Of a DNA stretch of 64,000 nucleotides, positions 55,453 through 63,658 are shown in pieces (position 1 is the stretch's first letter; every line of letters starts with the position of its first letter). Below the pieces are notes generated by a model. That model saw only the letters and a program-made list of their open reading frames with translations. It ran no database searches and had not been told where the DNA came from. The DNA comes from Eledone cirrhosa. Lineage: Eukaryota. Location of the stretch: NCBI GenBank assembly GCA_964016885.1, contig OZ024740.1:364684001-364748000 (forward strand), written 5' to 3'. The translations under genes were made by a program, and so were the position numbers.

Positions 55453-56543
55453 TTGCTGCTACTTATTGCACCAGAGCACCGGCCACATGTAAAATCTATG
55501 TTCTTAGTTAGCTTACCTGTGATCCCACTACATCTTTTATGCACCCATACTTTGCATTTGGGACATAAAATGGAGTTTCTACCTACGCCTTTCCTACACA
55601 CTGAGCATGGCCACTTCCCGGAAGGGACCGCCGCCTTATTTTCTTTCTTACAAACTAGAACTTTAGTCTTAGCCAGGTTAATTTTAAAGTCTTTTGATTC
55701 TAGGCCGTGCTTCCATGTTTGGAATCTCTTCTCTAGCTCGGCCATTGATTCAGCTATGAGCGTTAGATCATCTGCATATAGGAGTTCCCATGGGCAGCCG
55801 GTCTTGAACTCCTCTGTTATAGCCTGAAGGGCAATAATAAATAGTAGGGGGCTAAGAACAGAGCCCTGATGGACACCAACTTTTACGCTAAACTCTTCAC
55901 TATATTCGTTGTTAATTCTAACCTTGCTGACTGTTTCTTTATACATGGCTTGTATAGCTCTCACAAGCCATTCGTCAACACCTAGTTTTCTAAGAGCCCA
56001 CCAGATAATGGAACGGGGGACTCTGTCGAAGGCTTTCTCCAAGTCGACAAGAGCTAAGTATAGGGGTTTACTTTTAGCTAGGTACTTCTCCTGTAGTTGT
56101 CGTACAATGAAAAGAGCGTCTGTTTTACTTTTGCCTGACACAAACCCGAACTGCATTTCATCTAGATCAATTCTCTCTCTGATTAGTTGCGCTATTACTT
56201 TTTCCGTGACCTTCATGACCTGGTCGATTAATTTAATGCCTCTATAGTTACTCCTATTTAGGGCATCTCCTTTACCCTTATAACAATTAATGATGATGCT
56301 GCTACGCCAGTCCTTCGGAACAACCCCATTCTGTACGACTTGGTTTACTATCCGGGTGACCATGGTGTGTCCCACCGTACCAGAGGCTTTCAGCATCTCA
56401 GCAACTATTTCCGAAGGCCCAGCCACCTTACTCGTCTTCATATCTCTGATTGCCTTACTTATTATACTACTCTCGACTAACACTGCTGGTCCCTCTATTG
56501 GGTCGATGTGGGTGAGACTGTCTTTCTCCCATTTATTCTCCAT
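55404..56543 (-). pseudogene. RTE reverse transcriptase domain + PHD-like zinc finger
   Basis: NYRGIKL, QFGF, DLEKAFD, GVHQGSVLSP, LYADD; then CSVC..C..C....H..C..C..C. Confidence 0.95.
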
Positions 56544-56812
56544 TTACACCAACACATCACCCATCTCTTTCCATTCAAATTAGAAGCTACATTTTTAGCC
56601 AGTACAAATGACAAGTAAATATGTTTTGAAACAGTGAGCCGGTTTGACATTAGAAAATAGAATCGCTTTCACCGTATTTTTTTGGTAAAGAAATTTTAGT
56701 CTGATAATGGGGTTTAGAACCCTCAGATAAATGGAAAAAGATGAGTATTGACGTACATGGTAGTCGAACCCACATCTTTGGTTATCCAGACCACTGTGCT
56801 AAAGAGATGGCT

Positions 56813-56884
56813 GATGTGTTGGTGTAAATGGTAGCACAGTGGTCTGGATAGCCAAAGATGTGGGTTCGACTCCCATGTACGTCA
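56813..56884 (+). tRNA. tRNA-like cloverleaf, GGA anticodon, short variable loop (identity and function unresolved)
   Basis: Acceptor GATGTGT/GTACGTC (3 G-U), D-arm GTGT-AAATGGTA-GCAC, anticodon arm GTGGT-CTGGATA-GCCAA, variable AGAT, T-arm GTGGG-TTCGACT-CCCAT; canonical spacing, A- and B-boxes present. Confidence 0.55.
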
Positions 56885-57345
56885 ATACTCATTTAATAGT
56901 CTCCGTAGTGACCCTTCCAGGCTATCTTCTTATCAGCATCAGTGAGGGCAAGTGCACCGTTATCATTACGGACACACTTCTCCCCGACAATATCACGGTT
57001 TTCCTTGACACATTGTCTAGCAATCCTGAACACCTCGTGTTTTTAGTCCTCACGTTGTAGAACATGCTTGAACTTTCTATCCTCTGCTTCCCTTTTTGCA
57101 AGGTACACTTGTCTCCTAGCTTTTCTCCTGGCCACTTGATAGTGCTCTCTACTTCCCCCATCCTGCCATACTTTCCAAGCCTGCTTTTTGGCCTTGATTG
57201 TCTCTTCTACCTTACTGTTCCACCACCAAGTTACTCTCCTCCTGCCAATAGGTCTGCTCCAGCAACAAATTTCATCCGTTGCTTTCAGCAGGTTCACTTT
57301 CAATAATTGCCACTGTTCCTCTATAGCGCACGTCTCTAATTGCTC

Positions 57346-58188
57346 TTACTTATTGTCAAAGGCATCAAGTAATAAGCTTTTAAATTTGTCACTGGCTATG
57401 CGGTCCTTCAACTTCCATATTCTTCTCCTCAAGGTAGGCCTCCTCTGTCGTCGAGTACGTCTATTTCTGACTGTGAGGTCACTAACTACTAGGCTATGTT
57501 GGGTGGTGCATTCTTCACGGAGGAGGGATTTAGTGTTTACAACAGACACTTGGTCCCGTCTTCTAGTAAGGATATAAGCTATCTGGCTGGCGTGTTCCCC
57601 TGATCGATAGGTGATCAAGTGGTTTTCACGTTTTTTGAAGTTTGTATTACAGATAGTTAGGTTATTGGCGTCACAGAATTCCAGGATTCTGAAGCCTTCC
57701 TCATTTCTATTTCCAACCCCATAGCCTCCATGGATTCCATCATAGCCATCACTATGTTGTCCAACGTGGCCGTTTAGATCGCCAACAATAACTAGGTAGG
57801 CGCTGTCAGTTATTTGGGTGGTAGTGTGCATTAGCATCTCATAGAACCTGTCCTTTATAACGTCAAGTAGACCAGATTGGGGTGCATAAGCGGATATTAT
57901 TGTCACAGTAGTTTTATTTAGAACTAGCCTTATTTTAATTATTCTGTCATTTACTCTATTTACGTCGATTACCTTATCTACCCATTTTTCAGCTAACATA
58001 ATTCCTACTCCACCCTGTCCGTTGTCATTTCCCACCCAGAAAAGTTTATAGCATCGTTTTTTACCCACGATGAATCTGGCAGACCCCCCTCTCCACCTAG
58101 TCTCTTGAATACAACAAACATCAACTTCTTTACGTTCAAGCATCTCTACAACCTCATTTGAGCGACCTTTCACTGTGCCTACGTTCAT
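57346..58188 (-). pseudogene. RTE apurinic/apyrimidinic-type endonuclease domain
   Basis: (GT)MNV, CIQETRW, SAYAPQ, GDLNGHVG, NTNF, TQHSLV motifs. Confidence 0.95.
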
Positions 58189-59385
58189 GGTACCAACTCT
58201 GAAGCTGGGAGGGGTGTGGGAGACGGGATTTTGTTGGTCATCCGTGTCTGAAATAAAGAGGGGTCCTTGTATTCTCGTCTTGCAGCGGGAGGTGAATTTA
58301 TCTTTATCTGTGACATTGTCATTGAGTGCTTAGGCTTTTCAAATTTTCGCAGTCAACCCATCAAACAGGTCTAAACTTAAGGAGTAGTAACCGAGGTGGT
58401 AGCTTTGCTATACTGATTTGTTAGAGAACTTACTAAAGCCGCTGAGTTATGATTGGACCGTATAGCAATGGTGGTATATTACCCGTATGTTTTGTGAAGG
58501 TATGTATACCTTCTCGTACGTATATTTGACTGTTATAGCGTATAATTTTTACATATTCTGGTATTTAGGGTTTGGCTATGTGTATACGGGAGTTTTGCGT
58601 CCGCGTGGGTGCGCAGGTTCGTACGTATGGTGATTGTGTGTATATGTGTACTTCTTGTTTTAGTTGACTTACGTCTCCGAACATTCGTGTATTTATATGT
58701 AGGTATGTGTGTGCGCTTGTTATATACGTATTTATTTACTTATATACGTTTATATAATTATTTATTTATTTGTACACAAGCATACACACACACACATATT
58801 TATATGTGCGTGGTTTGGTATACCCATGGTAAGGTTTTGCGTATGCTTGTGTATGTACGTATCTTTTCGCGTGTATGTATTTATTTGTTTCTACTACTTC
58901 TGTATTGTATTTATTTACTTTGCTCTTAACTCTGTAGCGGAGATTCATTTGGTCTCCTAGTTAGAATTTTAGTCTACGATTTCTGCTATACCATTTACGT
59001 GGTTTTGTCTTTGCGTGCTATTGTTCTCCACGCTCCACATATGACTTATTATCTTTGTTTTTTCGTTCATTGCCAGAGAACGTCTCTATGCACCACCTAA
59101 GAGAACATTAGTCTACGACCTCTTTTATACCATAAACGTGGTTTTGTCTTTGCGCGTAATTGTTTTTCACCGCTCCTATTAATGACGTGTTATTCGTTTT
59201 TTCCCGTTCTTTGCCAGCGAACGTTACCACGAACCAAAGTATCGTCTTCCTGTCTTCCTCCGGTTGCAACGTTTTTTGAAATATCCAGTTCTGCGTTTAC
59301 AGATTGACTTCGTTAGTTTCAGAAGATCCCGTTAAGGGTGAAAGCAGCGATTCTTTGCTTAAACTTTAATGTGTTATTTTAATAA

Positions 59386-60801: not shown

Positions 60802-61312
60802 CAGGGTGCGGATGATATTTGTTCGCAATTTTCAACTGCTAATTTTATGCAAATTTTTTTTACTTCTGTTGTCACTCTTGTCTTCATAAAGACAGTGACT
60901 GTTTTTCCATTATTTGTTTTCGGGATGGTTGATTGTGAATAAATTTGAACCTCCAAATTTGTGGAAGAGACACAAAGTTCTTCTTGGAGTCCGTGCCGGG
61001 AGGACAAATAAGACCAGAAGATCAACTCCCAGAACAACAGGTGGCGCGCTGTCTAATCCAAAGACGTGCCCAGAGTCATGCAGACAAATTTTCCATCGAC
61101 AACATTGGTCTTTGGTGTCGTCAGCAGTCAAGGTGACGTCATGCCACCTCACTTTTTCCATGAAGGTTTCAAGTTGAACACCGATGGCTACATCCGCGTT
61201 CTGAGCGAGGTAGTAAAGCTCTGGATCGACCAGGTAGCTGCAGGTAGGCCGTACGTGTGGCAGCAAGACTCAGCGCCCTGCCATACCAGCCGATTGACCC
61301 AAGCCTGGCTGT
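60802..61312 (+). pseudogene. Tc1/mariner (maT/DD37D-like) transposase fragment
   Basis: TA-CAGGGTG terminus; NSQNNRW..PRVMQTNFPS..VFGVVSSQGDVMPPHFF..YVWQQDSAPCHTS; truncated by RTE sequence. Confidence 0.85.
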
Positions 61313-61583
61313 CTCCATTCCTACCCTGACTTTACTGACAGTACCTCTGTACAAAGTTTGCACTGTCCTCACAAGCCATTCCTCAACACCTAGTTTCCTT
61401 AGGGACCACCAGATGACAGATCGGGGTACCCTATCAAAGGCCTTCTCTAGGTCAACAAAGACTAAGTATAGTGGCTTATTTTTCTCTAAGAACCCCTCTT
61501 GCAATTGTCTCACCAAGAAGAGGGCATCTGTTGTACTTTTCTGAGACACAACACGAAAATGCATCTCATCTAGTTTGACCCTT
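61313..61583 (-). mobile_element. Inverted RT segment of RTE family 2
   Basis: Reverse complement of 62608-62878, about 15 mismatches in 271 bp by manual alignment. Confidence 0.92.
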
Positions 61584-61587
61584 CCTC

Positions 61588-63658
61588 TTCTTATTAGTTA
61601 GGCAGCAGGACAGGCAGATAGTGTCTAATACCAAGGCATACCCTGGGGAAGCATATCTCAGTAAGCAAGAGATGGAATGAGACATATAGGAAGGTGTGGA
61701 GAAGAAAGGTCTGGAAGCTAAAAGACCTTTCACTAAAATACAAATTTAGGAAAGCCCTTCAAGATGTATATGACGAAAAAGAAGACGATTTAGAGACATA
61801 TGACATAGATAATAACTGGAATTTCTTACGTGACAACTTGCTGCAGGCTACTGATGAAACTTGTGGCTGGAGCAGAGCTCCAACCAGACAGAGAGTGACC
61901 TGGTGGTGGAACAGCACAGTAGATAAGGCTATTAGAGACAAAAGACTAGCATGGAAGGCTTGGAAAAAGGATGGGAGTAGGGAAGAATATACAGACACTA
62001 AGAGAGAAGCTATACGTCAGGTGTACTTAGCACGCAGGGAGGCAGAGAGTAGGAGGTTTGCCAATGTTCTGCGACGGGAAGATCAGAGGCGGGCGGTGTT
62101 CCACATTGCAAGGCAGTGTGTCAATGCAAATCAGGATGTTGTTGGAGATAAATGTGTCCGGGATGATGCCGGTGTACTTAGTGTCACGAATGATCAGAAA
62201 AAGGAGGCCTGGAAATGTCATTATGAGAGACTGATAAATGTGGAGAACAAATGGGAGAAAGAGAAATTACCCTTGGTAGATCCGACAGAGGGACCAGCTA
62301 TTGAGATTGACGAATATAGGGTCCAAGAGGCGATTAGGGAAATGAAAAATGGTAAGGCTGCCGGACCATCGGGAATAGTTGCTGAGATGCTGAAGGCATC
62401 AGGGGACATAGGCACTAAACTAGTTGCACGCATCATCAATCAGGCTATATATGGTGGTGTCATACCCAAAGACTGGTGCAGCAGTATTCTCATAAATTGC
62501 TACAAAGGTAAAGGGGATGCTCTGGAGAGGAGCAATTATAGGGGTATAAAACTGATAGATCAGGTTATGAAAGTGGCAGAAAGGATTTTAGCACAACTAA
62601 TTAGAGAAAGAGTCAAACTAGATGAGATGCAGTTTGGTTTTGTGCCTGGGAAGAGTACAACAGATGCCCTCTTCTTGGTGAGACAATTGCAAGAGAGGTT
62701 CTTAGAGAAGAATAAGCCACTATACTTAGCCTTTGTTGACCTAGAGAAGGCCTTTGATAGGGTACTCCGATCTGTCATCTGGTGGTCCCTAAGGAAGCTA
62801 GGTGTTGAGGAATGGCTTGTGAGGACAGTGCAAACTTTGTACAGAGGTACTCTCAGTAAAGTGAGGGTAGGAATGGAGTTTAGTGAGGAATTCCAGATAC
62901 AAGTAGGAGTACATCAAGGTTCGGTCCTCAGCCCGCTCTTGTTCATTATAGTCCTCCAAGCCATAACGGAGAAATATGTATGCAGTAGATGTACAGGGAA
63001 ATTAGACAGTAGAAGTCGCATTGATAGACACATTTTTTAAATGCAGGAGGGCGCTATAGAAGTGGTGGATAGCTTCCGGTACCTAGGAGATCAGATTAGC
63101 ATGGGAGGAGGGTGTTCTGAGGCCATAGTATCTAGAATAAGGACGGGTTGGAAGAAGTTTAGGGAGCTGCTTCCTCTGTTGAAGAAGAAGGGTTTCTCCC
63201 TGTGTACAAAAGGCCGGTTGTATGATGCCTGTGTGAGGAGCGCGATGCTTCATGGTAGTGAGACATGGGCAGCAACTGCAGAGGATATGCGACGGCTGGA
63301 GAGAAATGAGGCAAGCATGCTCCGTTGGATGTGCAGTGTAAATGTTATGAGAGAGAAACTGTCTGAGAGGGATAGAATGTAGTGTACGGGAGAGGAGACT
63401 GAGGTGGTATGGACATGTGATGCGCATGGAGGATGACCGATGGGTGAAGAAGTGCCAGGAAATGCCAGTTGAAGGAAGACGTGGTAGAGGTAGACCACGA
63501 AAAACATGGGCGGAGGTGGTGAGAACAGACCTCAGATCATTGAAGCTCACGGTGGAGATAACGAAGGACCGTGACGAGTGGAGGGATGCTATGCTGAATA
63601 AGACCCGTCCCACCCTTGCAAGCAGGGAAAAGCGGACATAAGATGATGATGATGATGA
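61588..63658 (+). mobile_element. 5'-truncated, internally deleted RTE LINE (family 2)
   Basis: ORFs 61694-63040, 63041-63382 and 63417-63641 are homologous to family 1; YADD is lost by deletion; (GAT)n tail. Confidence 0.93.

Follow-up and report, generated by a model that had tools for sequence, protein, structure and literature searches.

The window analysed here, a stretch of 64 kb of Eledone cirrhosa DNA, contains an RTE LINE that is interrupted by a 352-bp insert. The insert is a copy of a repeat unit that is dispersed on many chromosomes of the 3.0-Gb genome, and this unit is probably a ribozyme-free, tRNA-headed, non-autonomous passenger of Penelope-like elements (PLEs), its RNA being copied by the two ends of a cut in the DNA. 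The single locus is one insertion of a repeat family; its interest lies in the anatomy of that family and in the chimeric RTE around the insert. The insert has two arms, whose 5′ ends abut at 56800/56801. Its parts and those of the host RTE are as follows, positions within the unit being prefixed with u:

56893–58330, minus strand: 5′ half of the host RTE, with the APE endonuclease region (Pfam Exo_endo_phos), subfamily 1
56801–56892, plus strand: arm 2, head-to-head with arm 1, consisting of a 12-nt leader, a whole cloverleaf (56813–56884) and a trailer; at its 3′ end it adjoins RTE subfamily 1 via 5 nt of microhomology
56541–56800, minus strand: arm 1, 260 nt, one circularly permuted unit running from u19 round to u15/16; at its 3′ end it adjoins RTE subfamily 2
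56749–56800, minus strand: 3′ two-thirds of the cloverleaf, from u19 (B box, acceptor 3′ strand, discriminator at 56749)
56735–56740, minus strand: C+T5 run, a Pol III-type terminator, kept in both subfamilies of the unit
56571–56734, minus strand: AT-rich body of about 165 nt, which holds the 3′-end zones u152–172 and u197–216
56541–56570, minus strand: leader, followed by the first 18 nt (5′ start, A box) of the next cloverleaf, with G1 at 56558
54430–56540, minus strand: 3′ half of the host RTE, with reverse transcriptase (RT), PHD finger (Pfam RVT_1, PHD), 3′ UTR and (GAT)n tail, subfamily 2

A preliminary description of this DNA had noticed about 350 bp of foreign DNA splitting the RTE reading frame, which is confirmed here; Pfam recognises both RTE halves. 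It had also read the minus strand from 56800 to 56541 as one permuted unit, 2 nt short of 262 bp. Both the coordinates and the content bear this out, and the two bases absent from arm 1 are present in raw reads of the head-to-tail joint. Since arm 1 crosses a unit-to-unit junction, it was copied from a circular template or from one that comprised two units or more. The best genomic relatives of arm 1 are 93–95% identical to it. Arm 2 had been described as an inverted complete copy; the cloverleaf is indeed whole and differs from arm 1 at three of 92 positions (two in 61, one in 31), but only 92 nt of the unit are present, and the trailer ends immediately before the C+T5 run. This run is carried through in every mobilised copy that reaches the body.

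The head of the unit resembles a tRNA. ARAGORN identifies 56812–56885 as tRNA-Ser(GGA), and the cloverleaf of arm 2 scores 45.5 bits with the Rfam tRNA model (cut-off 29). Its anticodon is GGA, its variable loop has 4 nt and position 37 is T; across the family, T occupies this position in 208 of 210 passes, the anticodon being GGA in 163 and CGA in 32. A functional tRNA-Ser has a long variable arm and a purine at position 37. The unit departs from it in both respects, with a short variable arm and T in place of the purine, so a functional tRNA-Ser gene was rejected and the head is considered tRNA-like. The best-preserved unit copies score 44–51 bits, as against 70–75 for the tRNA-Thr genes of the genome. 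None of the 16 Rfam tRNA matches among 63 scored candidates was close enough to be the parent tRNA (best score 41/71); the D-arm may resemble that of tRNA-Gln. The genome also has clusters of tRNA-Thr genes at L325 and L327 (seven and five tRNA calls within 3 kb) and a second dispersed element (L326, L328–L336), longer than 1 kb, whose 5′ end is fixed and adjoins TA and which holds an internal high-scoring tRNA-like gene whose anticodons drift (GGC, AGC, GAC, GGT, GTC). The anatomy of this element is unlike that of the 260/271-bp unit; it is perhaps a non-autonomous DNA transposon.

A search of the genome with the arm sequence gave 1,996 candidates, 40 of which were scored. Exact matches to a 24-letter motif from the body number 1,517 in the genome, and the reversed motif, used as a control, has none; as the motif is exact in 78 of 166 segments that cover it, the family comprises roughly 3,200 copies. 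There are two subfamilies, of 260 and 271 bp, in which head and trailer are identical at 90 of 91 columns and the body at 103 of 138; copies average 95% identity to their own consensus. The anatomy was analysed at 170 distinct loci, namely 36 from the arm search, 67 from a further search and 67 sampled by the body motif in positional order along one chromosome, with 10 duplicate rows dropped and three long arrays kept apart. Head-to-tail partial tandems occur at 20 of the 67 body-sampled loci, and 47 have no unit junction. The one-off capture from a donor array that had been proposed is therefore not borne out, the unit being a dispersed mobile family. A dispersed SINE or MITE had been set against the existence of head-to-tail copies; the unit is dispersed, and head-to-tail copies exist as well.

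RNAalifold predicted only three pairs in the body and did not recover three hairpins proposed there. These putative structures are 95% paired; they rest on one compensatory change between the subfamilies and carry little weight. No Rfam ribozyme matched the units, either in the window or in the family copies, and the hammerhead core motif is absent from both strands of both subfamily consensuses; the same scan finds it in two PLE 3′ regions, although highly deviant ribozymes could escape such scans. Matches of the unit to miRNAs were dismissed, as they merely reflect the palindrome and the TA tracts.

The main evidence comes from the anatomy of the insertions. Two arms are present at 111 of the 170 loci, invariably head-to-head and never tail-to-tail; as an inverted arm of short length is visible at five loci scored as single-armed, the figure of 111 is a lower bound. 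In the body-motif sample, taken in positional order, 39 of 67 loci are head-to-head. At the two-armed loci (TA)n adjoins both outer ends in 91 cases, one end in 16 and neither in four, the background being 614 of 6,500 random flank positions (9%). The outer 3′ ends fall into two zones, long (u197–216) and short (u152–172). Their pairing is long/short at 90 loci, long/long at none and short/short at four, the other 17 having other ends; mixed pairing was expected at 47 of 94 loci and observed at 90 (p about 1e-22, the classes having been drawn after the end histogram was seen and the end positions being ambiguous by a few TA bases). The offset between long and short ends is 33–59 nt in 83 of the 111 loci, with a mode of 46. 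Both arms mostly cover the same region of the unit, and they usually overlap by 0–7 nt where they meet. Neither poly(A) nor a simple-repeat tail belongs to the unit itself, and it lacks a single 3′ end; the two end zones abut target TA.

The 5′ ends are also clustered. In the head-sampled set, which is biased by design to starts before u9 but not to a sharp edge at u255, 45 of 119 lie at u255–u9 and none at u221–240. In the body-sampled set 48 of 108 lie at u55–71, within the T-arm and the acceptor 3′ strand. A further peak at u41 (eight starts) was discarded as an artefact of self-similarity, the inversions actually lying at about u61. Lineage alleles are shared in 331 of 385 comparisons between arms and in 304 of 346 between tandem units, the fraction between loci being 0.55. 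Divergence is 4.5% (median) from arm to arm and 3.3% from arm to consensus; as the former is the larger, the arms need not have been copied from one molecule. In raw Illumina reads of two runs the head-to-tail joint is covered by 135 and 114 reads, from 15 starts in each run, and a joint that folds back near u62 by 18 and 22 reads, so neither joint is a product of assembly.

This anatomy is close to that of PLEs. According to PMC8557442, PLEs insert as partial tandems with a neighbouring inverted copy that is 5′-truncated, a 30–40-bp tail at one end and a bias towards microsatellites, and PMC8969392 also documents this signature. Purified PLE protein is reported to cut and extend both strands and to start at two internal RNA sites, which define the tail (PMC11167929). 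The priming described there is independent of homology, whereas junctions of the unit often show 1–6 nt of it. The genome itself holds a young PLE family of the Neptune type (clade name as in PMC8557442), with a Pfam RT and, at the C-terminus, a GIY-YIG domain, all 40 scored matches of which are 100% identical over 301 nt. Head-to-head arrangement was found at 24 of its 33 loci and tail-to-tail at none. Five of the 24 run off the stretch examined; among the 19 that are resolvable, 13 are long/short exactly 44 nt apart, in (TA)n, two are long/long, with one end entering a microsatellite in both cases, and four have other ends. An older PLE family has adjacent inversions in only four of 30 loci (3-kb windows). 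The young loci (L347, G000:C2:216,782,300–216,792,200, and L340–L368) have a 4,202-bp period, a 775-codon frame, a hammerhead-type core in the pLTR and a clean 44-nt one-sided tail, and many of the copies are identical.

LINEs served as controls, and these were RTE and R4/Dong-like elements. RTE loci were head-to-head in none of 11 cases (10-kb loci) and showed no adjacent switch in 29 (3-kb loci), four of which hold more distant opposite-strand pieces; the R4/Dong-like LINE, which ends in (TAA)n, had none in 27 scored of 28. The controls bear on the reading of the unit as an ordinary tRNA-derived SINE moved by a LINE (RTE, R4/Dong, CR1 or L1/Tx1), its inversions arising via L1-style twin priming. 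Twin priming also yields head-to-head arms, the head has A and B boxes, and RTE and R4-like LINEs are present in the genome. Nevertheless, this origin appears very unlikely: the missing tail and single 3′ end, the constant 260/271-bp tandem period that includes the upstream flank, the lack of adjacent inversions in RTE and R4-like copies, and arms that mostly cover the same region with one about 45 nt short, as in PLEs, all speak against it.

Regarding the template, the preliminary description had favoured DNA, on the grounds that the spacer past the terminator is included, and this overlooks read-through transcripts; moreover, the 5′ ends cluster at the tRNA start and the T-arm. Double-stranded DNA should give both types of inversion, so the single polarity in 111 of 111 cases implies that both cut ends copied the tRNA-sense strand; the target is on each side attached to a 3′ end of this strand, and each cut end was thus extended as an antisense copy. 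Copies begin at the Pol III head and break off at the tRNA fold, so that the template would have been a Pol III read-through RNA, judging from the sequences of the insertions, and the evidence favours a linear one.

The earlier suggestion, in which strand-switching repair mediated by microhomology copies a donor tandem array or a circle of DNA into a break, is unlikely, being untenable for the family and possible at the window locus. There it can draw on the lack of TA, the non-canonical ends, microhomology at both joints, an RTE subfamily switch that suggests a break and the passage of arm 1 across a unit junction; tandem arrays do exist, and the polarity of the window copy alone has a fair chance of arising from DNA. 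For the family, double-stranded DNA leaves unexplained the uniform polarity, the fixed long/short pairing and the 5′ ends at the tRNA start; arm 2 halts just before the terminator run, like a Pol III transcript, and the arrays themselves have insertion-type ends. Another reading keeps mobilisation by a PLE but takes as template a monomeric, retrozyme-like RNA circle, excised by tRNA-processing enzymes in place of a ribozyme and copied by rolling reverse transcription. An exact tandem period, one haplotype common to the units within an insertion, and a cloverleaf that is the best-conserved part between subfamilies would suit such a circle, and retrozymes use circles (PMC7229834). The sharp 5′ edge at u255–u9, however, fits a linear transcript start, there is no ribozyme, the 47 body-sampled loci lack a unit junction and a short homogeneous array accounts equally well for the haplotypes; a circular template is thus a minor, rather doubtful option.

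The preferred course of events, with a linear RNA as template, would be as follows. On a tandem copy, Pol III would begin transcription a few bases ahead of the cloverleaf and read past T5 into the body, often on into further units. A PLE reverse transcriptase/GIY-YIG endonuclease, probably of the Neptune type, would bind the unit RNA and cut (TA)n; one DNA end would prime cDNA at u197–216 and the other about 45 nt upstream. Each cDNA would end at a random point or where it reaches the T-arm of the tRNA or the 5′ end of the RNA, and the two would be joined head-to-head with an overlap of 0–7 nt. A few insertions may later expand into arrays.

As for the enzyme, the genome has 10,595 GIY-YIG candidates. 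The inspected loci with an RT match have the endonuclease at the C-terminus, mostly with a Neptune-type CxxC linker; no Naiad-type elements (N-terminal endonuclease) were found among the GIY-YIG loci inspected. Comparison of the unit with 34 PLE-containing loci gave no significant similarity (best E 0.66), and with 16 PLE 3′ regions no alignment beat all 60 shuffles, AT-rich matches being at chance level; the loci compared represent a minority of the genome's PLE families. With no sequence link to the sampled 3′ regions, no partner family is named. In a single case (L358:6225–6870, G000:C1:320,259,400–320,269,300) a young two-armed unit copy, its arms identical over 109 nt, is directly joined to an arm of the young PLE with a 3-nt overlap; the joint is either a nested insertion or a template switch. 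In several PLE families (3′ regions of L165, L170, L171 and L163) the predicted folds resemble hammerheads, with cores that are altered and a stem III that is palindromic.

The window copy is atypical, being one of the four of 111 without a TA end and having ends (u15, u79) outside both zones, and it keeps the head-to-head polarity of the family. The RTE around it is a chimera, the two halves belonging to different subfamilies, a difference absent from the preliminary account. Diagnostic sites are of type 1 at 96 of 96 positions in 56893–57900 and of type 2 at 71 of 74 in 55600–56540; nearer the joint the figures are 73 of 73 and 51 of 52, respectively, and the switch lies exactly at the insert. 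The halves meet in register with no base lost. Sister RTE copies had been expected to lack the insert; 14 copies and six of the second subfamily are all empty, and their empty sites show no exact target-site duplication (TSD), in line with the earlier impression that there is no clear one. Microhomology, given earlier as TAAATG/ATG, amounts to 5 nt (ATGAG) at 56892–56888; at 56541 it is 1 nt, rising to 6 nt (TAAATG) on the assumption of a staggered cut that lost 2 nt. An RTE subfamily that was already recombinant was rejected as the source of the switch, the hybrid motif being present in only three of 4,896 empty sites, in mosaics unlike the window. The different subfamilies in register on either side, the absence of TA and the odd ends point to a patched break or crossover; in all probability microhomology primed the window copy at a break that already existed, or at an ectopic crossover between two RTE copies. 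Part of the earlier proposal of microhomology-mediated repair, namely entry at a break, is therefore retained for this locus as probable. The host RTE chimera is a possible rearrangement breakpoint. Elsewhere in the window there are more distant LINE fragments at 61169–63040 and 53483–54193 (one with about 67–74% identity to the host RTE, the other a further RT fragment), and microsatellites of TA type, kilobases in length, lie at about 48–52.5 kb.

It is also conceivable that the family is real and that the window locus, with its palindrome and RTE switch, was joined wrongly in the assembly. Assemblers are misled by repeats and by palindromes, the subfamily switch coincides exactly with the insert, and among the matches listed for four runs no read or contig crosses either RTE–insert joint; these runs, however, consist of RAD-seq data or short contigs, in which the locus may be missing. 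The three differences in 92 positions between the arms show that it is not a read fold-back, and base-precise microhomology with the empty site at both joints, as well as the register of the RTE halves with no base lost, makes a mis-join highly improbable.

Head-to-tail copies had been predicted elsewhere in the assembly and in raw reads, and they exist, as the joint in the reads and three long arrays of 39, 28 and 11 segments demonstrate:

L051–L052 (C4:264.916–264.926 Mb): array of 39 segments
L178: array of 28 segments
L053: array of 11 segments

All three are bounded by (TA/TAT)n at the usual 3′ zones, and one has a head-to-head inversion and a long/short pair. With such insertion-type ends the arrays look like expanded insertions. 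They offer a snapshot of the birth of a satellite from a retroelement.

The nearest known systems are non-LTR retrozymes and the schistosome Sm-alpha elements. Like the unit, non-LTR retrozymes are described as non-coding, 150–450 bp long, dispersed as monomers to multimers, low in GC and with a proposed mobilisation by PLEs (PMC7229834; bioRxiv 10.64898/2026.07.22.740005; for a further comparison see PMC4209133). The unit differs in that no type I hammerhead was found and no pLTR homology detected, in its tRNA-like Pol III head and in the evidence for a linear read-through RNA. Sm-alpha and Sj-alpha (PMC6765202, PMC2770079) share with the unit a tRNA-related, short, tandem, apparently Pol III-driven structure and depend on multimeric transcripts, as is proposed for the unit. 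They carry a hammerhead that frees monomers, unlike the unit, and the inverted, one-sided-tail anatomy of PLE type does not figure in the descriptions drawn from these two sources.

PLEs (Neptune, Naiad) and non-autonomous Chlamys elements including MRC1 are described in PMC8557442 and PMC11167929 with many features of the unit: partial tandems, 5′ truncation, an inverted neighbour, a tail at one end, (TA)n targets, no clear TSD and multicopy head-to-tail non-autonomous forms. Canonical PLE pLTRs and retrozymes carry a hammerhead, whereas none was found in the unit; according to the same two sources, Naiads and most Chlamys likewise lack it. The 3′ ends of non-autonomous Chlamys are generally those of autonomous families too, and among the PLEs sampled no such family was found for the unit. 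The unit further differs from PLEs in having no ORF, a tRNA-derived promoter and 3′ ends that scatter within two zones instead of falling at two exact sites. With tRNA-derived SINEs and SINE satellites (PMC10702118, PMC11481361) it shares the A/B-box head and, in some cases, tandem expansion. Reptile SINE satellites are satellite-like (PMC10702118), and the tandems and palindromes of bivalve SINEs are rare forms (PMC11481361); tandems and inversions are the majority form of the unit, as against about 3% in bivalves, its orientation is fixed and it has no LINE-type tail or TSD. In a literature search judged mostly on titles and abstract openings, with Repbase and Dfam outside its scope, no description of a ribozyme-free, tRNA-headed PLE passenger was found. 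An annotation of Octopus vulgaris lists 893 unclassified, recently active SINE families (PMC13282606), so the unit family may already be catalogued.

The mechanism of tandem and inverted PLE insertion is described as unresolved in PMC8557442 and PMC11167929. A natural 260-nt substrate with two mapped start zones, together with a young 775-codon PLE, makes two-ended priming testable in vitro. The chances appear about even that the unit represents a class of ‘Penelope SINEs’, tRNA-promoter, ribozyme-free RNAs without homology to a helper that would be reverse-transcribed by PLE protein, whose insertions record a fixed two-start-site (~45 nt) rule with RNA from one source, and whose window copy would show this machinery welding two RTE loci at an ectopic crossover. 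Copies of this kind are predicted to inflate the counts of tRNA-Ser genes in such genomes. If the unit is, as seems probable, a PLE passenger, it would follow that SINE-like elements need not depend on LINEs.
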